Part shown: positions 1 to 8,033 of the stretch, in pieces
How the letters are laid out: every line of letters begins with the position of its first letter
Numbering within the stretch: position 1 is the first letter of the stretch
Assembly: GCA_027310185.1 (NCBI GenBank)
Contig: DAIDBH010000006.1
Span: 64,001-128,000 of the forward strand
DNA length: 64,000 bases
Reading direction: 5' to 3'
Source: Thermoplasmatales archaeon
Lineage (GTDB): Archaea; Thermoplasmatota; Thermoplasmata; Thermoplasmatales; Thermoplasmataceae
The notes under the pieces: model-generated
Databases searched by the model: none
The model's input: the letters and a program-made list of their open reading frames with translations, nothing else
Told to the model about the DNA's origin: nothing
Made by a program: the position numbers and the translations under genes

Positions 1-166
1 TACATATCGAAACAGAGAAAGTCGAGGGAGAACGGGGAGAATCAAATGTTTCCTCTATCGAGATAACGCTCTCAAAATGATTTTTTCTCTTAATATATAA
101 ATACTTTTCACAAAAAATTCTTAAAAAGGTTAAATTGCTCCGAAGTGATATGGTATTGTTGATTCA

Positions 167-1147
167 ATGTCAGAAGTTCTAAAAATCAGTGTTGATCTGA
201 GTGGCAAACTGGATCTGATTAACAAAAGACTCTCAGAAGTCCTGAAGACGGACAATGAGAAATTGAACGAGATGTCAAATTATACAGTATCCTCAGGCGG
301 AAAGAGACTCAGGCCACTGATTGTCCTGCTTGTTTATGAATTAAGCACCACAAAGCCGGTAGAAAATGCACTCGACCTGGCAGTCGCTTACGAGATAATG
401 CACAGTGCCAGCCTGATCCACGATGATATAATTGATGAAGCTGAAGAGAGGAGGGGCATGCCTTCGCTTCATAAAAAATACAGTCTAGGGGATGCAATAG
501 TAACAGGTGATTACATGTTCTCAGTTGCTTACAGGATTGGAGCCACATATGGGATTGATGTTTCCAATGTTGTTGCAAAGGCGGCTCAAAAGCTTGCAGA
601 AGGGCAGATAGAGGAATCCATGAATCTCGGGAATTTTGAAATCACTGAGGATACTTATTTCAATATTATAACTAACAAAACGGCATACTTCTTTGCAGCG
701 GGGGCTAAAACTGCTGCAATGGTTGCGGGTTCATCAAGAGAAGACCAGAATAACATGTTCAATTTTGCCTTCAATGTGGGAATGGCCTTTCAGATTGCAG
801 ATGATATTCTGGACATTGTGGGAAAGGAGGAGATCATCGGCAAGACTCCGTTCACAGACATGAAGCACAGTGCTCTTACGCTGCCTATGATTTATGCGCT
901 GAAGAATGGAAACGAGGCTGGGAAGAGACATCTGAAAAGCGTTTTGAGGGGGAGAGAGACAGATCCGGAAAGCATTCAGAAGGCAAAACAGTTCCTAATT
1001 GATTCAGGTTCTGTGGATTATTCAATAGAAAAGGCCAAGAAATTTATTGACATGGCAATTGAATCTGAAAAGACGGCAAAGATCAGCCCGAATCTTCAGA
1101 CATTGTTTGAGATTGCATATAGCGTAATAAGCAGGATAAGGGTTTAA
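167..1147 (+). CDS. Polyprenyl diphosphate synthase, probably medium/long-chain (quinone side chain)
   Basis: GGKRLRP, FARM ASLIHDDIID, RRG, SARM FQIADDILD. Small Ala/Ser at -5/-4 before FARM suggests a product longer than GGPP. Confidence 0.92.
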   Translation: MSEVLKISVDLSGKLDLINKRLSEVLKTDNEKLNEMSNYTVSSGGKRLRPLIVLLVYELSTTKPVENALDLAVAYEIMHSASLIHDDIIDEAEERRGMPSLHKKYSLGDAIVTGDYMFSVAYRIGATYGIDVSNVVAKAAQKLAEGQIEESMNLGNFEITEDTYFNIITNKTAYFFAAGAKTAAMVAGSSREDQNNMFNFAFNVGMAFQIADDILDIVGKEEIIGKTPFTDMKHSALTLPMIYALKNGNEAGKRHLKSVLRGRETDPESIQKAKQFLIDSGSVDYSIEKAKKFIDMAIESEKTAKISPNLQTLFEIAYSVISRIRV

Positions 1148-1148
1148 A

Positions 1149-2312
1149 ATGGTAAGAATATTATTGTATACTGGAAAAGGTGGGGTAGGTAAAACAAGCG
1201 TTTCGGCAGCAACAGGCATAGAACTGGCAAAAAGAGGATTGAAGACCCTCGTTATTTCAACAGATCCGGCTCACAGCCTGAGAGATGCGTTTAAGAGAAA
1301 CATAGGGAGCGAGCCTGTTGAGGTCAGTAAGAATCTCTTTCTTCAGGAGATCAGTGTCACAGAGGCAATAAAGAAGTACTGGGATAACCTTAAACTATAT
1401 CTTACAGCACTAATGAGATCACAGGGTGTGGACGGTATTGCGGCTGAAGAAATAGCGACCATGCCAGGTTTTGATGAGGCAACCGAACTACTTTACATAA
1501 GGGAATACGCAAATGACAAGAGGTTTGACGTAGTAGTGATGGATACAGCACCCACGGGAGAATCCCTTAAATTACTGTCATTTCCGGAAGCTTTTTCATG
1601 GTACATGGAGAGGATATTCCCCATAAGCAGGAAAACGGCAAAGATAATGCGTCCTCTTATGAAGCCTTTCCTTGGTGTCCCTATTCCTGATGACAAGGTT
1701 TTTGGAAGTATTGAGGAGCTCTATTCCCAGATGAGGGAAGTGAAAGAAATACTCTCAGATCCTCAGACGACAACAATAAGACTGGTATGCAACCCTGACA
1801 GGATGTCATTCAATGAGACAAAGAGAGCTTTTACGTATCTATTAATGTACGGGTATAACGTGGATAGCGTGATTGTGAACAAGATTTATGCAGATGATAC
1901 GGGTGAATTTCTGAAAAAGTGGAGGGAATCCCAAACAGAAGTCCTGGAAGAGATCGAAACTGCATTCGCTGATCTCAAAATTATGAAGATCCCCATGAGT
2001 GCAAACGAACCTACCGGACAGAAACTGCTCGAGGAAATGGGAAAGAAGCTGTATGAGGATGTTGATCCATTAAGTATAATGAGCAGTATCATACCTCCAG
2101 TACAGTTCATAAGTGAAGATGATCATAAAATGGTAAAGATAAGGATACCATTTGCTGACAAGAAGAACACCCAGTTGCATAACAGGGGAGGTGAGCTCGT
2201 GGTACAGATAGATAACTGGAGAAGAGTCTTCTTCCTGCCACAGAGCATGAGTGATCTCAACCCTACTAACGCAGAGTTTAATAAGGGCTTTCTCAATATA
2301 GAGATGAGTTAA
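1149..2312 (+). CDS. ArsA/GET3-family ATPase with C-terminal HSP20/alpha-crystallin-like domain (Get3d-like)
   Basis: P-loop GKGGVGKT, STDPAHSL, DTAPTGE. Single ATPase domain plus a beta-rich tail (VKIRIPF...GELVVQIDNWRRVFFLP...AEFNKGFLNIEM). Confidence 0.9.
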   Translation: MVRILLYTGKGGVGKTSVSAATGIELAKRGLKTLVISTDPAHSLRDAFKRNIGSEPVEVSKNLFLQEISVTEAIKKYWDNLKLYLTALMRSQGVDGIAAEEIATMPGFDEATELLYIREYANDKRFDVVVMDTAPTGESLKLLSFPEAFSWYMERIFPISRKTAKIMRPLMKPFLGVPIPDDKVFGSIEELYSQMREVKEILSDPQTTTIRLVCNPDRMSFNETKRAFTYLLMYGYNVDSVIVNKIYADDTGEFLKKWRESQTEVLEEIETAFADLKIMKIPMSANEPTGQKLLEEMGKKLYEDVDPLSIMSSIIPPVQFISEDDHKMVKIRIPFADKKNTQLHNRGGELVVQIDNWRRVFFLPQSMSDLNPTNAEFNKGFLNIEMS

Positions 2313-2513
2313 ATGGTAGAGAAAACAATTGGCGGAAAAAACGGGAAAATACACTTTGAATTTGATCTTGAACTCCCGGGACTGAAAGAGTCTGCCGAGG
2401 ATTTCCTTTCATTCATGAAAGCTGCGGCAGATGAGATGGTTGATGTAGGAAGGAAAGTCGCTTCAAAGGGAAACACTGAAAAGAGAGAGATAAAGAAAAT
2501 AAATATTAAATAA
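2313..2513 (+). CDS. Small hypothetical protein (66 aa), amphipathic helix, C-terminal KKINIK
   Basis: ATG directly follows the TAA of the ATPase gene; plausible protein composition. Confidence 0.75.
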   Translation: MVEKTIGGKNGKIHFEFDLELPGLKESAEDFLSFMKAAADEMVDVGRKVASKGNTEKREIKKINIK

Positions 2514-2561
2514 TTTTTAAACAACCACTATTCATATTAACATTGTATTAATTACCTGATC

Positions 2562-4103
2562 ATGGTTGATTTGGAGAGGATTAAGAAGAATACTTTTGAA
2601 AAGCTTGGTCTGTCTGATAGTAATTCGGGTGTGTTTTATGGGAAATGGGAAAAATTTTCTGAAAAGGATGCCATCACTGTAAAGAGCCCAATAAATGGAG
2701 CGCTACTGGGAAAGGTTTCAGTTGCCAATCCTGATACTTACGACAAAACAGTTTCATCATTGCGAAAGGCATTTTCAGAGTGGAGCGACGTTCCGGGACC
2801 CAAAAGAGGTCTCCTCATTAAGAAAATCTCAGACGCACTCTCCGAGAAAAAGGAACTTCTGGGAAGGATTGTTTCACTGGAAGTTGGAAAAACCAACGTT
2901 GAGGGACAGGGTGAAATCCAGGAAATGATAGACGTTGGATACTATGCAACAGGACTGGGCAGGCAGATATATGGAAATACCATAGCCAGCGAAAGACCAG
3001 AGCATGTACTTTATGAGAAGTTCCTTCCACTTGGTGTTGTAGGAGTCATAACAGCATTCAACTTCCCATCTGCAGTATGGTCATGGAACTCATTTTTAGC
3101 TGCAACTGTAGGAGACACTGTCTTATGGAAACCATCATCAAAGGCTGCCCTGACTTCGGTTGCTGTAATGAATGTAATAGGAAAAGTTCTGGAAAAAGAG
3201 AACTACCCAAATATATTTGGTCTTGTAAATGGCAGAGGATCAAGCATAGGTGAGTTGCTGTCAAAGGATGAGAGGATTCCACTCGTTTCCTTTACAGGTT
3301 CTGTTAAAACAGGAAGGCATATCTCATCAGTTGTTTCAGGCAGATTCGGCAGGACAATACTTGAACTTGGAGGGAACAACTGCGCAATAGTCAGCGAGAA
3401 GGCAGACATGGATATTGCACTGAAAGGTGTTGGATTCGGGGCACTTGCCACAGCGGGCCAGAGATGTACAAGCACAAGAAGGGCCGTTGTCAGCGAGAAG
3501 ATATACGAGGACTTCAAGAAGAGGCTTATTGAGGCTTACAGGAAAGCCAGAATTGGTAATCCACTTGAGAATGGAGTGCTTGTAGGACCCCTGATAGATG
3601 AGGATGCTGTGGTGAATTATGAGAAGGCTATAGTGAAGGCGGTTGAACAGGGAGGAAAGGTCCTGACAGGAGGAAAGAGACATAAAGGTGAGAGCAACGG
3701 CTATTATGTGGAACCAACAATAATAGAAGCCAAGAAGGGCATGGAAATCACGAAAGAGGAAACCTTTGCACCTATCCTCTACCTCTTCAAGTATTCCAAT
3801 CTGAAAGAAGCCATTGAAATTCACAATGGTGTTCCTCAGGGACTCTCATCGGCTATGTTCACAACAGATCTGAGGGAGGAGGAAATTTTCCTCTCATCAA
3901 AGGGGTCTGACTGCGGTATAGCAAACATTAATACAAGCACTGCAGGTGCTGAAATTGGTGGTGCATTTGGTGGCGAGAAAGATACAGGTGGAGGAAGAGA
4001 ATCAGGCAGTGATGCATGGAAGGCATATACGAGAAGAATCACCATAACGAAGAATTATGGTAATGAGTTGCCACTTTCTCAGGGAGTCACTTTTGACCTC
4101 TGA
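2562..4103 (+). CDS. Aldehyde dehydrogenase, ALDH7/antiquitin-like
   Basis: ITAFNFP, SFTGS, LELGGNN, TAGQRCT, ETFAP, GAEIGGAFGGEKDTGGGRESGSDAWK, C-terminal LPLSQG. Confidence 0.93.
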   Translation: MVDLERIKKNTFEKLGLSDSNSGVFYGKWEKFSEKDAITVKSPINGALLGKVSVANPDTYDKTVSSLRKAFSEWSDVPGPKRGLLIKKISDALSEKKELLGRIVSLEVGKTNVEGQGEIQEMIDVGYYATGLGRQIYGNTIASERPEHVLYEKFLPLGVVGVITAFNFPSAVWSWNSFLAATVGDTVLWKPSSKAALTSVAVMNVIGKVLEKENYPNIFGLVNGRGSSIGELLSKDERIPLVSFTGSVKTGRHISSVVSGRFGRTILELGGNNCAIVSEKADMDIALKGVGFGALATAGQRCTSTRRAVVSEKIYEDFKKRLIEAYRKARIGNPLENGVLVGPLIDEDAVVNYEKAIVKAVEQGGKVLTGGKRHKGESNGYYVEPTIIEAKKGMEITKEETFAPILYLFKYSNLKEAIEIHNGVPQGLSSAMFTTDLREEEIFLSSKGSDCGIANINTSTAGAEIGGAFGGEKDTGGGRESGSDAWKAYTRRITITKNYGNELPLSQGVTFDL

Positions 4104-4112
4104 TTAAACAGG

Positions 4113-4146
4113 ATTTTTTTACTGCAAATCTTTTTTTTCTTTTTTT
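4113..4146 (+). terminator. Oligo-T tracts, probable archaeal terminator
   Basis: Three T-runs immediately after the ALDH stop codon. Confidence 0.5.
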
Positions 4147-4361
4147 CCTAATTTATTAATCGAGTTATAACATGAACTGTTGCACATAAACTTCAATATA
4201 AATTTGATAGTGTGTAATATATTACCTTTTTGTGAAATTTATATAATTTGTCATATTATAATATAAAAACCCATGAATTGTTCATTTTCCCAATGAAAAT
4301 TTTATCATATAAAAAAATTACCGAAACCACTTAAATAATATGAACCATTAATGAAGGTATT

Positions 4362-5837
4362 ATGTTCGAAAAGACCTCCAGAGATTCAGGTGGCACTAAG
4401 AACGAATTGAAAAAGGGATCTGTTGGTACATGGCAGGGAGCATTTTACTCGCTCGCCCAGGTAGGGCCAGCGGCGGATATTGCCATACTCCTGATAGGTA
4501 CATTCAGGGATGTTGGTTTCAGGTCAGTAACAGCAGTACTGGTTGCATGGCTGATATATGGGTTGTGGATGATCACACCGTATGAATTCTCAAAGTTGAG
4601 ATCCAATGCTGGTGGGTATTATGCTTATGCGGCTGCATCAACAAAGAGTGGTTTTTATGGTCCTGCAACGGCATTTTCATGGCTGTATGAGAACCTAACT
4701 TCCTCAGCATTCGCAGTTCTTGGAATATCATCATTCCTGTTTCTGCTATCATCTGAGATATCATCGCTGAAATATCTCTGGGTGGTGTTTGCCATAGGGA
4801 TGATTGTTTACGTAACAGTAATTCCATATCTTGGAATTAGACCTTCCGTTCAGTATACATTCATAACTGGTTTTGCAGAGGTTATGTTCCTTTTCATTGC
4901 ATCAATCATAATAATCATAGAGGTTGGGCCAGGGAACTCTTTCGTACCATTTACATTACCTTTCAGCATAGTACCGGTATTTTTCCTATCCATGATTTTC
5001 TCCATAAGTGATTTTACAGGAATCGGTATTTCTACGACAATATCGGAGGAAATAGAGGAGCCAAAGAAGAAGATAAAGAATTCTCTTCTTCTCTCATACC
5101 TGTTTTCAGGACTTGCACTGATTCCTGCAACATATGCACTGACCGTGGGATGGGGGATATCCGGTATTAAAGGATTCGCAGGGGCCAATGATCCTGGCCT
5201 GATTGTCTTCGAAAGGTATCTGGGACCAATTGGCGGGATACTTCTTGTAATATTTACAATAAACAGTTATCTCTCCAATGGTGTTGCAAAGACCAACGCT
5301 GTCAGCAGGGTATGGTTTTCTGCCAGCAGGGACAAGATCATATTCCCAAAATCATTCTCTGAGGTACATAAGAAATACAAGAGCCCGCACAAGGCAATAA
5401 GAGCGTATATGATCCTTATGCTTGTTATCAACCTTCTCTTTGGTTTCCTTTTCGGTCCAAAGACGGGAGCACTCATATTGCTGACAGGTTCAGGAATAGG
5501 AATAATTTTCACCCATATCTATGCAAACATTAGCCTGACACTATATACAAGAACACAGAAAGTTTTCAAGTGGCTGGTACATGGACTGATTCCAATCGCT
5601 TCCTCAATCATAGCCGGTGTTGTTATCTTTTACACCGTTCAACAGGATATCCTCGCACAGATACTATCACCATCCTTTGATAACTTTGCCTATGCAACTT
5701 CTGCTGTAGTCGGCGTGATCTGGTCATTTGTGTTTGCAATCGTAATTTCATTCTACTATGTTAGAAAAAAGCCAAAGATTGCAACTGCAGCCGGAACATA
5801 CGATGCAGATCATATAAAAATTACATGGGATAAGTGA
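4362..5837 (+). CDS. APC-family amino acid/amine permease
   Basis: About 12 hydrophobic segments; NAGGYYAY, SEEIEEPKK, SRVWFSASRD...HKKYKSP. Confidence 0.88.
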   Translation: MFEKTSRDSGGTKNELKKGSVGTWQGAFYSLAQVGPAADIAILLIGTFRDVGFRSVTAVLVAWLIYGLWMITPYEFSKLRSNAGGYYAYAAASTKSGFYGPATAFSWLYENLTSSAFAVLGISSFLFLLSSEISSLKYLWVVFAIGMIVYVTVIPYLGIRPSVQYTFITGFAEVMFLFIASIIIIIEVGPGNSFVPFTLPFSIVPVFFLSMIFSISDFTGIGISTTISEEIEEPKKKIKNSLLLSYLFSGLALIPATYALTVGWGISGIKGFAGANDPGLIVFERYLGPIGGILLVIFTINSYLSNGVAKTNAVSRVWFSASRDKIIFPKSFSEVHKKYKSPHKAIRAYMILMLVINLLFGFLFGPKTGALILLTGSGIGIIFTHIYANISLTLYTRTQKVFKWLVHGLIPIASSIIAGVVIFYTVQQDILAQILSPSFDNFAYATSAVVGVIWSFVFAIVISFYYVRKKPKIATAAGTYDADHIKITWDK

Positions 5838-5886
5838 TCCCATAAATCCATAATTTTACCAATAATATTTTGAATTCCTTAATTTT

Positions 5887-6849
5887 TCATATCATGTTCA
5901 GTAAATATGAAGGCAGTTCCATTGATACAACAAAGTTTGGTTCATCCACTATTTCACTTATGTGCAGATTGCCTGCAACGCTGCATAGTATGTAAGCTTC
6001 CTCTTCTGTTAGACCCTTTTCGTGGAGGATGCTTATCATGGATAGTGCTGCTTCCGTTGAACATTTATAAAGATCCGGACCTATACCTGTTGAAATTATA
6101 ACTTCTCCCTCTTCTTTCTTTCTGCTAATGATTACTGGCGATCTGATCTTCCTTTTCCTTTCTATTTTAACTTCTGCTACAATTCTTGCTCCTGTCTCGA
6201 CTGCAGTTCCACAGATCTCTCCATCCCCCTGGGAACCATGTGGATCTGAGAATGATAGCAATCCCCCTTCAACAGAGACTGGAAGAGTGATCCTTGAACC
6301 CTCCGAAACAAATCTATTGTCCATGTTTCCACCAAAATACTGAGGTGGGATCATTCCATACTCTCCTTCTGCAGGAGCTGTACCTATGACTCCAAGAAAT
6401 GGACTGGCCTTTATTCTTATTCCTTTCAATAAGTCTCCTTCTGAGAATATCTCTCCTTTGCCGATGTTCCAGAATAAGAGTGTTTCCCTGTACCTATTCT
6501 TGAGCAAGCCAAAATCATTCATTATTCCTGTCCATCCCCAGCTATCGGTTTCCATTTTCTTTATGGTAACTTCAATGCTATCTCCGGGATTTGCACCTTC
6601 TACATATATGGGACCAACTGCCCCATCAAAGAGTGATGAATCTATTGACCTCATCTGCGAAAGAGTGGAATTCCTGCTTATCTGCATTGTTGACGAATCT
6701 GGAATAATCACCTCGAATTCCTCCCCTTCCTTCACATGGAATACAGGACTGTTATTCCTACTCCATTTAAAGTGTAGATTTCTTAAATCTCTTCCATTCA
6801 GTTGGTTCATACCGGTAGTATTCCATCTATGAATAAATAATGTGCCCAT
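5887..6849 (-). CDS. Acetamidase/formamidase family protein (start may be ATG at 6810)
   Basis: GPIYVEGANPGD, PFLGVIG, GGNMD, DPHGSQGDGEICGTAVE, AYILCSVAG. Confidence 0.9.
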   Translation of the reverse strand: MGTLFIHRWNTTGMNQLNGRDLRNLHFKWSRNNSPVFHVKEGEEFEVIIPDSSTMQISRNSTLSQMRSIDSSLFDGAVGPIYVEGANPGDSIEVTIKKMETDSWGWTGIMNDFGLLKNRYRETLLFWNIGKGEIFSEGDLLKGIRIKASPFLGVIGTAPAEGEYGMIPPQYFGGNMDNRFVSEGSRITLPVSVEGGLLSFSDPHGSQGDGEICGTAVETGARIVAEVKIERKRKIRSPVIISRKKEEGEVIISTGIGPDLYKCSTEAALSMISILHEKGLTEEEAYILCSVAGNLHISEIVDEPNFVVSMELPSYLLNMI

Positions 6850-6992
6850 TATTTATTAGGATTTTTCCATGATTTCTCTAGGACGAATATGATGAATATT
6901 CCAGTTACTGATAGTGCAAATTTCCCCATGAAAAATAGTTATTGGATAGGATTGGAAATAATTAATAGTTAACCAGTAATGGGTTGATGTAA

Positions 6993-7934
6993 ATGAAAAT
7001 TAGTGAGATTCATAGCAGATTAAACAGGAGATGCATAATAGCAATTAGGCAGCATAAAGGAATTTTTAGCGTACTTTCAAGGTTGGAAAAGGTCACACCT
7101 GTATTCATTTTCAACGAAGGAAATGTTACATACATCAGACTATTCTTCCTCAAGAACGAGATATCAAACTCAGCAATTTCTCCCATTCTTTCCAGGAAGG
7201 ATCTGGTGGAGAACAGGTCATTTTATTCCATAACAGAGAGTGTGGAGAATGATGAACAAACCAGTATTATCACAAGGCTTCTGGAAGCCCCTTCAGTGGC
7301 CTTGAATAACACATACCTGCTAAGGGATGAATTGTTTATTGACTTCAGATTTCACGAGGATAAGCTTCACGAGATTAACGATATTTTGGCCGAAGTCATG
7401 GGTAAACTGAAGGATTTCAGGATAGTTTCAATGACACATTCTCTCAGCCTCAGGAGGAGGATGGATGAAATAAGGCAGCAGACACCTCTCTCATTGGTAA
7501 AATATACACTCAGGACACCTGAAGACAATACAATACTGAAATATATAAAATCCATAGATCCTGAATCAGTGGCAGAAATTCAGGGAAGCATCCTGTCTGA
7601 TAAGGGAGTGAAGGTTTTATTGTATACGACCAGGCCCATAAAACATCCTGGCGTTAAGGTTGTTTCTGAAGAAGATCTCGTTTATGAGGCTTTTGTAAAG
7701 GAAAAAACACTTGAGGACGGTATGAAACTTGGTAATAACGCTGGGATACCAAGGCTTGCATTCTTCTTGACTGTGGAAAATGGAATTCCATGTGATACCA
7801 CCTTTGTGCCTGCAGCAGAAGCCGACGAATATATATCAATTATGATGAGTTCACTCATGTCAGATCACGAAACGCACCCACTACTCCAATTCTTCTCTTC
7901 ACTTGATGATGAGGAGGTATGGAGCTGGGTATAA
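6993..7934 (+). CDS. Hypothetical protein, paralog of 21310..22197
   Basis: 313-aa ORF followed by a T-tract; shares LLEAPSV...Y...FRFH...EINDIL pattern with 21310..22197. Confidence 0.75.
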   Translation: MKISEIHSRLNRRCIIAIRQHKGIFSVLSRLEKVTPVFIFNEGNVTYIRLFFLKNEISNSAISPILSRKDLVENRSFYSITESVENDEQTSIITRLLEAPSVALNNTYLLRDELFIDFRFHEDKLHEINDILAEVMGKLKDFRIVSMTHSLSLRRRMDEIRQQTPLSLVKYTLRTPEDNTILKYIKSIDPESVAEIQGSILSDKGVKVLLYTTRPIKHPGVKVVSEEDLVYEAFVKEKTLEDGMKLGNNAGIPRLAFFLTVENGIPCDTTFVPAAEADEYISIMMSSLMSDHETHPLLQFFSSLDDEEVWSWV

Positions 7935-8033
7935 ATCCTTTTTTTTTACTTATTAATATAAGAATCTCCTTATCTAAAAGAATACAATGATTTAATTTCA
8001 TTAAAATATACAGCCTAAGTAAAAGGGTTATCC

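Follow-up and report, generated by a model that had tools for sequence, protein, structure and literature searches.

Directly downstream of a gene for a Get3/ArsA-type ATPase with a C-terminal alpha-crystallin domain (aCD), a Thermoplasmatales archaeon (assembly GCA_027310185.1) carries an open reading frame (ORF) for a protein of 66 amino acids, which is very likely a real gene and a dedicated partner of the ATPase. The pair lies in the stretch of 64,000 nucleotides analysed here (contig DAIDBH010000006.1, positions 64,001 to 128,000 of the forward strand), hereafter called the window. As judged from sequence and gene order, such a pair is conserved across the Thermoplasmatota and many non-phototrophic bacterial phyla and has escaped annotation, since public annotation lists this widespread family of small proteins only as “hypothetical”. 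That the 66-residue protein is a dedicated partner with a conserved C-terminal I-x-I (IXI) tail is well supported, and the tail is probably functional. The explanation that we favour overall, and to which we give about an even chance, is that the protein would be a small subunit or regulator of the ATPase whose tail docks in trans on the aCD.

In PMC10248533 and PMC6593721, the role of the aCD on Get3-like ATPases is called unknown and no partners are known. A search of open-access PubMed Central and bioRxiv likewise returned nothing that describes the small protein or any partner of aCD-bearing Get3 homologs. A partner carrying the very motif that aCDs are known to bind would submit the question of their role to a direct and cheap test and, if docking is confirmed, would provide a prokaryotic example of an IXI docking peptide that acts in trans and sits on a non-heat-shock protein.

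Co-occurrence of the small protein and the ATPase

With the ATPase as query, matches were obtained in 35 of 81 genomes of the order Thermoplasmatales: 31 hold the full-length form with its aCD, and four hold a form of about 33 % identity that stops near residue 300. Four profiles of the small proteins were used, A1 being built from the genus, A3 from 27 short Thermoplasmatales proteins of eight genera, A5 from long archaeal forms and A7 from bacterial partners. Over the 81 genomes, A3 gave one ATPase-adjacent match in each of the 31 genomes with the aCD-bearing ATPase and none in the other 50. An initial annotation of the window had called the protein a “dedicated client or adaptor”; these counts bear out a dedicated companion, whereas the client part of the proposal suffers from the lack of a membrane span in the protein (see below). 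At all 30 loci that were fetched, an ORF of 55–69 amino acids starts between −16 and +44 nucleotides from the ATPase stop and ends in [KRSN]K[IV]x[IVL]K.

Judged by alignment, the tail is the most conserved part of the short family, because in A3 only M1 and K66 are invariant and only K62 and I65 reach at least 90 % conservation. All 27 of these proteins end in [IV]x[IVL]K, so that the IXI terminus, on whose presence in homologs the initial annotation had staked its proposal, is indeed kept. In the genus alignment of 14 sequences, I65 and K66 never vary, and conservation of I63 is at least 90 %.

The wider family was recognised only through the position of its genes and not by sequence searches with the genus profile: A1 retrieved just three representatives among 1.84 billion proteins and nothing credible beyond the genus in 201 genomes of the class. 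A word-based search returned seven proteins, each of 66 amino acids, one of them named as Cuniculiplasma. In a large protein database the A3 family amounts to 37 clusters of 45–66 amino acids, and those with names are hypothetical or uncharacterised proteins from Cuniculiplasma, Ferroplasma, Picrophilus and Thermoplasma. Pfam and NCBIfam have no match for the 66-residue protein. A fusion of ATPase and partner was not found with A3 among longer proteins, which is weak evidence.

The small gene and its product

The 66-residue protein is encoded in 13 of 41 related genomes, all 13 of them in the genus of the window (12 of 16 other genomes and the window's own), and every one of these copies lies directly 3' of the ATPase gene. 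Among eight ungapped orthologs, the proportion of nonsynonymous differences (pN, 0.06–0.41) is far under that of synonymous differences (pS, 0.40–0.90) in all 28 pairs, and the gene is under purifying selection. In the window the TAA stop of the ATPase (2310–2312) is followed directly by the ATG of the small gene at 2313. Stop-codon readthrough, for which the two ORFs are in frame here, is ruled out by a 1-nucleotide spacer or a 4-nucleotide overlap in relatives of the same genus.

RNA libraries offer a weak hint of expression. Contigs from two runs of one metatranscriptome study span window positions 1–4082 and 1–4111 at 100 % identity, although contigs of this kind fall short of proving a single transcript and the RNA libraries may contain carried-over DNA. 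Both contigs stop, and then run into adapter letters, at the 3' end of an aldehyde dehydrogenase gene (stop at 4103), while the next RNA contig begins at 4376 at about one tenth of the depth. A transcript may end between these points.

The initial annotation had described an amphipathic segment and the terminus EIKKINIK. Both match the translation exactly (L24–S51 and E59–K66), and the helical hydrophobic moment, which peaks at 0.42–0.52 across residues 25–51, agrees with the amphipathic call. Since the 19-residue Kyte-Doolittle mean never exceeds 0.38, the protein is amphipathic without a membrane span, and with its Lys-rich C-terminus it does not have the single hydrophobic C-terminal span of a tail-anchored client. 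The segment K12–P22 upstream of the helix has a beta-periodicity moment of 0.47–0.54 and is kept as I.IEI.I.VP across the Thermoplasmatales. The long partners of archaea and bacteria lack this strand-like segment, and in a profile comparison it resembled neither the ATPase nor its crystallin domain.

The small protein has no aCD of its own: Pfam and NCBIfam gave no match at E-values up to 0.1, and hhalign of the small-protein family against the alignment of ATPase plus aCD returned a probability of 0.3 %. Cysteine is absent from all 66 residues, and with it the vicinal Cys pairs of an ArsD-type metallochaperone. Profile searches of the PDB with A7, A5 and A3 gave nothing below an E-value of 0.04, and the ESM Atlas, which holds the 66-residue protein, gave no usable match.

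The ATPase and its crystallin domain

The neighbouring ATPase has the architecture PF02374 plus PF17886, with both domains above their curated cut-offs: ArsA_ATPase covers residues 3–303 (E 5e-96; 321.9 bits, cut-off 24.3) and ArsA_HSP20 residues 324–386 of 387 (E 9e-18; 64.0 bits, cut-off 22.5). The protein passes TIGR00345, the general GET3/ArsA/TRC40 model, with 279 bits (cut-off 135). It fails the Get3d/NosAFP equivalog NF050088 (159.4 bits, cut-off 325) as well as the ArsA-pump equivalog TIGR04291 (124.5 bits, cut-off 650), and it is a single domain of 387 amino acids, not a pair of tandem halves. The P-loop is intact and no CxxC occurs in the window ATPase. A phmmer search of PDB sequences placed it closest to archaeal Get3 (3zq6 and 3ug6, E about 1e-56, the best being 8e-57), with Nostoc Get3d 3igf at 3e-25 and Arabidopsis Get3d 8elf at 8.5e-12.

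An AlphaFold2 model of the ATPase reached a predicted local distance difference test (pLDDT) value of 81.9 and a predicted template modelling score of 0.80. Its core is best matched in Foldseek by archaeal Get3 (3ug7/3zq6), and the only match to the full-length fold, aCD included, is NosGet3d (8egk/3igf, about 391 columns). Because sequence and core fold are nearest to archaeal Get3 and the NosAFP equivalog failed, the protein classifies as an archaeal ATPase of the Get3 type to which a crystallin domain has been appended, outside the Get3d clade. In the model the aCD consists of seven strands (318–323, 326–332, 341–345, 349–354, 357–362, 372–378 and 381–386), the last of which leads straight into the end of the protein (...FLNIEMS, residue 387), as had been claimed. 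Long groove-type helices with several Met residues are modelled with a pLDDT of 59–64 near residues 90–110 and 140–180.

The C-terminal IXI tails of small heat-shock proteins (sHSPs) bind the beta4/beta8 groove of a neighbouring aCD. The two sHSPs of the same genome (PF00011; 129 and 182 amino acids) end in ...TVKIE and ...SVKIE, that is in V-K-I-E. These ends have the same layout as ...KKINIK, namely hydrophobic-x-hydrophobic plus one residue behind a Lys-rich stretch. A strict terminal pattern, [KR][KRQ][IV]x[IVLF] plus 0–1 residue, is found in seven of the 2250 ORFs of at least 100 amino acids in this genome and in nine of the 7477 ORFs of 40–99 amino acids. Four of the seven long ones were scanned with Pfam and proved to be unrelated proteins: two M13 peptidases, an ABC ATPase and ribosomal protein L21e.

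None of the five loci examined that encode an ATPase without aCD (four in the order and the archaeal locus L174) has an IXI-tailed neighbour, an indication that the fused aCD is what counts. The aCD-less ATPases at loci L177–L180 (families f6 and f2) are followed by a gene for another conserved protein of about 217 amino acids, starting at −19 to +10 nucleotides. It has an N-terminal membrane helix and no IXI end, gave sub-threshold Pfam matches to CCDC47 (PAT complex) in two of the four cases, and may be a membrane receptor of this ATPase form.

Long forms in other Thermoplasmatota

PF17886 has matches in 262 of 401 genomes of the phylum, the weaker of which, in frames of about 140–240 amino acids, are probably ordinary sHSPs. 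Downstream of the aCD-ATPases of other families lies a co-directional gene for 81–167 amino acids with a conserved helix (about “H..rAG.E”) and ends such as KKIDLE, KKVELD, KKIEFS or RKIDLD. Of 70 Thermoplasmatota loci from 11 GTDB families, 69 have a co-directional ORF of at least 40 amino acids that starts between −75 and +60 nucleotides from the ATPase stop; at the sole locus without one, only 378 nucleotides of contig were left. The motif stands at the very end in 52 loci and within the last 35 residues in nine, while it was not found by pattern in eight; for nine of the 70 loci the small protein had itself served as query, and without them the figures, with the locus lacking an ORF last, are 43, 9, 8 and 1 of 61. 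Locus L084 is outside this tally. The initial annotation had proposed to look for such ends in small ORFs beside other Get3d-like genes, and the outcome is positive in other Thermoplasmatota and in many bacteria.

Profile A5 matched in 68 of the 401 genomes, and the families concerned are those whose ATPases carry a fused aCD: 47/48 in f12, 6/6 in f30, 5/5 in f34, 2/2 in f35, 1/1 in f36 and 5/5 in f54. None of the 76 A5 matches (open frames of 102–331 amino acids) is fused to the ATPase. In the A5 alignment 16 of 17 rows have the motif in the aligned block, and a library scan of nine long archaeal partners gave sub-threshold matches only.

Two families deviate from the general picture. In f17 (L091–L093) the downstream gene encodes 104–136 amino acids without a clear I-x-I end, and A5 matched in none of nine genomes, although six of them carry the fused domain. 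In f54 (L080–L084) the ATPase has a basic N-terminal extension of 28–52 residues and an acidic tail of 30–38 residues ending in E-[EI]-[IV]-G-L, and the V-x-V-x-F motif of the partner is internal, with a basic tail after it. For the f54 ATPase L083 (442 amino acids; tail E-E-V-G-L), the AlphaFold2 model, which as a monomer cannot show docking in trans, has residues 413–442 disordered (pLDDT 30–42).

Bacterial partners

A scan with A6, a phylum-wide alignment of the ATPase, over a sample of one genome per species yielded 80 loci, mostly bacterial, in which the match runs through the aCD. At 38 of the 77 loci with a complete ATPase (at least three of these 38 being artefacts, namely two split ATPases and one doubtful ORF), a downstream ORF of 40–230 amino acids ends in [IV]x[IVLF] plus 0–3 residues. 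The motif lies within the last 16 residues at seven further loci, 16 have no such ORF, and 16 have one or more ORFs without the motif. By itself, the count obtained with this loose pattern in bacteria is not strong evidence. Hidden Markov models (HMMs) of A3, A5 and A7 detected a downstream partner in 41 of 72 evaluable loci. The partner is frequent in Actinomycetota (20/23), Acidobacteriota (4/5), Desulfobacterota (4/5), Dormiibacterota (2/2) and Archaea (4/4), and occurs in Scalindua, Verrucomicrobiota and Lachnospiraceae (1/1 each). In comparison, the counts are 0/8 in Cyanobacteria, 0/3 in Chlorobi and 1/6 in Chloroflexia, which suggests that the partner was lost at the base of the Get3d clade. 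The phototroph loci without an adjacent partner include L128, L131, L140, L141, L143, L144, L149 and L150 (cyanobacteria) and L155, L162 and L165 (Chlorobi).

In a Kribbella genome searched as a whole, the sole partner match comes immediately 3' of the ATPase gene. Of the seven bacterial matches that are not part of A7, six carry I-x-[IVL] near their end. High-GC bacteria keep the motif with different codons, which therefore argues for selection on the protein. A library scan of 20 bacterial partners gave sub-threshold matches only.

Besides the position, an amphipathic helix and the C-terminal basic-[I/V]-x-[I/V/L] motif are without doubt common to all forms, and they are the only such features. 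In profile-profile comparisons, A5 and A7 align over 28 helix columns (92.6 %, E 4.6e-7), A3 and A7 over 38 columns of helix plus tail (hhalign; 64 %, E 6.5e-5), and A3 and A5 over ten columns of the tail only (7 %). The 66-residue protein is plausibly a shortened member of the long family.

Many bacterial partners, mostly from Actinomycetota, have a CxxC or CxxCxxC just upstream of the helix (L097, L108, L116, L135, L152, L163, L164, L167, L170 and L176). In eukaryotic Get3, a CxxC binds zinc at the dimer interface. The ESM-Atlas clusters nearest to the bacterial partner L158 (scores 0.92, 0.90 and 0.87) belong to PF27253 (Pfam 38.1, AF_1253, uncharacterised), a lead only, and no paper on the AF_1253 protein was found in open-access PubMed Central and bioRxiv.

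Proposed mode of action and alternatives

We propose that the 66-residue protein is a dedicated small subunit or regulator of the aCD-bearing Get3/ArsA-type ATPase, in a family that would be defined by a position directly downstream of the aCD-ATPase, an amphipathic helix and, at the C-terminus, a basic-[I/V]-x-[I/V/L] tail. This tail would bind the aCD of the ATPase in trans, in the beta4/beta8 groove, in the manner of sHSP tails. Docking on this aCD seems to us slightly favoured, and it would explain why the aCD of the ATPase ends without a tail of its own. A short, charged, basic linker of about 11 residues would then hold the helix at the body of the ATPase near the dimer interface, where it might regulate or adapt the ATPase cycle instead of lying as a client in the hydrophobic groove.

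The Get4 site of Get3 is on the face opposite the client groove. According to PMC10248533, the aCD in Get3d structures occupies this Get4 site and so lies on the dimer interface. For this reason, a regulatory contact close to the nucleotide or the dimer interface would be likelier than one in the groove; that the helix acts on this side is nonetheless a tentative assignment. The conserved helix positions in A5 and A7 include polar residues (H, E, R) beside hydrophobic ones, which suits a specific interface more than the imitation of a membrane span. It is also possible, if somewhat doubtful, that the fused aCD is altogether a receptor for the IXI tail and not a chaperone module. The pair would then be a two-component prokaryotic Get3 machine in which the helix replaces Get4 or Get1/2, and the Get3d of phototrophs and plants would be a derived form that has lost the subunit.

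Several alternatives must be weighed against docking in the groove of the ATPase's own aCD. The protein could be a dedicated partner whose tail goes elsewhere, by adding a strand at another place, by bridging dimers into oligomers (N-terminal strand and tail engaging different aCDs) or by recruiting free sHSPs. We consider this unlikely, yet it is the alternative to be taken most seriously: the same co-occurrence evidence applies to it, the Thermoplasmatales form has its extra strand-like N-terminal segment, and the grooves of the two free sHSPs with partner-like tails are possible targets. The absence of a partner beside the five aCD-less ATPases examined speaks instead for the relevance of the fused aCD, and the long forms do without the N-terminal strand. 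The model of the initial annotation, in which the IXI tail sits on the aCD and the helix enters the client groove of the Get3 dimer as client, plug or adaptor, appears improbable to us. It can draw on the amphipathic nature of the helix, on the long, flexible, Met-bearing groove-type helices retained in the ATPase, and on the binding of a tail-anchored protein of which Get3d is capable according to PMC10248533. However, the small protein has no segment resembling a membrane span, its conserved helix positions in the wider family are partly polar, and the placement in the groove is made doubtful by the aCD at the Get4 site, from which the roughly 11 residues between helix and IXI motif are short for reaching the opposite face. 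The client role or the placement in the client groove is thus probably wrong.

A real small protein that is merely co-transcribed with the ATPase, with an unrelated function and a motif that serves something else, is more improbable still. The lack of a family annotation in Pfam and NCBIfam would be compatible with it, but the strict co-occurrence and adjacency across two domains of life, while all other neighbours change, argue against it. Finally, an accessory role in arsenic resistance, with the ATPase as ArsA pump subunit and the small protein as ArsD-like metallochaperone, is highly improbable. The Ferroplasma acidiphilum ortholog FAD_1514 has been read as an arsenite pump ATPase located away from the ars operon, and its neighbour goes unmentioned in the portion of that source at hand (PMC5473848). 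The window ATPase, however, stays far below the ArsA-pump cut-off and consists of one domain only, cysteine is absent from the small protein, and Pfam found no ars genes within window positions 1–8000.

A number of points weigh against the proposed docking of an IXI-tailed subunit in trans. The motif patterns were drawn up with the data already in view, and ORFs match the loose one at a background rate of 9–14 % (214 of 2383 ORFs at the loci obtained with A6, and 1252 of 8662 across the genome of the window). Thirty of the HMM matches are rows of A7, and this part of the count is circular; since the rows were picked from motif-bearing ORFs, the C-terminal column of A7 is partly circular as well. 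The related genomes in our counts are not independent. Eight of the Thermoplasmatota loci have a downstream gene without a clear terminal motif by pattern (three in f17, two each in f12 and f54, one in f72), and several long forms carry 5–25 further residues after the motif. The homology between the short and the long families is moderate (64 %) or confined to the tail. Moreover, whole-genome profile searches found no partner in two cyanobacteria, one Chlorobium and one Chloroflexus. The aCD does not require the partner, because the aCD-bearing ATPases of Cyanobacteria, Chlorobi and most Chloroflexia have none adjacent.

Relation to known systems

The nearest parallel to the tail are the C-termini of sHSPs, which share with it the hydrophobic-x-hydrophobic motif behind basic residues (V-K-I-E in the sHSPs, I-N-I-K in the partner). 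Unlike them, the partner is encoded by a separate gene and has no aCD of its own, and the target aCD is fused to an ATPase. BAG3, which is not an sHSP, docks in trans on aCD grooves through IXI-like motifs, its IPV motifs binding HSPB8 and HSPB6. It differs in being a large eukaryotic co-chaperone with internal motifs, without an ATPase-fused aCD and without sequence relation to the partner.

Get3d/NosAFP of plants and cyanobacteria (8egk, 3igf, 8elf) has the two-domain architecture of the ATPase, but the window ATPase is nearer to archaeal Get3 and the cyanobacterial loci are without partner. Get4/5 and the cytosolic helices of Get1/Get2 are, like the proposed subunit, small helical regulators at the dimer interface of eukaryotic Get3, and tethering to the aCD would bring a helix close to the Get4 site. 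No sequence similarity was found between the partner and Get4/5 or Get1/Get2.

Genomic context

The features discussed are collected in Table 1. Upstream, the ATPase gene is tightly coupled to a polyprenyl synthetase gene, the stop of which ends at 1147, two bases ahead of the ATPase start at 1149. Among 25 loci compared, a polyprenyl synthetase homolog lies upstream of the ATPase in four further ones, which belong to the GTDB family f1.

Table 1. Positions of the gene pair, its sequence features and related genes (window coordinates unless a genome contig is given)
Feature	Position	Strand	Basis or remark
Gene of the 66-residue partner protein	2313..2513	+	ATG start, stop codon included; ORF list
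N-terminal strand-like segment K12–P22 (KIHFEFDLELP)	2346..2378	+	Hydrophobic/polar alternation, Pro at the end
Amphipathic helix segment L24–S51	2382..2465	+	Helical moment up to 0.52
C-terminal tail E59–K66 (EIKKINIK), I-x-I motif at I63 and I65	2487..2510	+	Conservation
ArsA/Get3-type P-loop ATPase, 387 amino acids, with C-terminal alpha-crystallin (HSP20-like) domain	1149..2312	+	Pfam
aCD of the ATPase, residues 318–387, proposed docking site	2100..2309	+	Strands of the AlphaFold2 model
Polyprenyl synthetase gene, context only	167..1147	+	Pfam PF00348, 3.5e-68
sHSP gene	G000:C4:145320-145709
sHSP gene	G000:C12:150673-151221

Farther downstream, and in keeping with the Thermoplasmatales origin of the window, positions 6993–7934 encode a protein of the Ta1207 family (PF19020, E 2e-45), which is named after a Thermoplasma protein.

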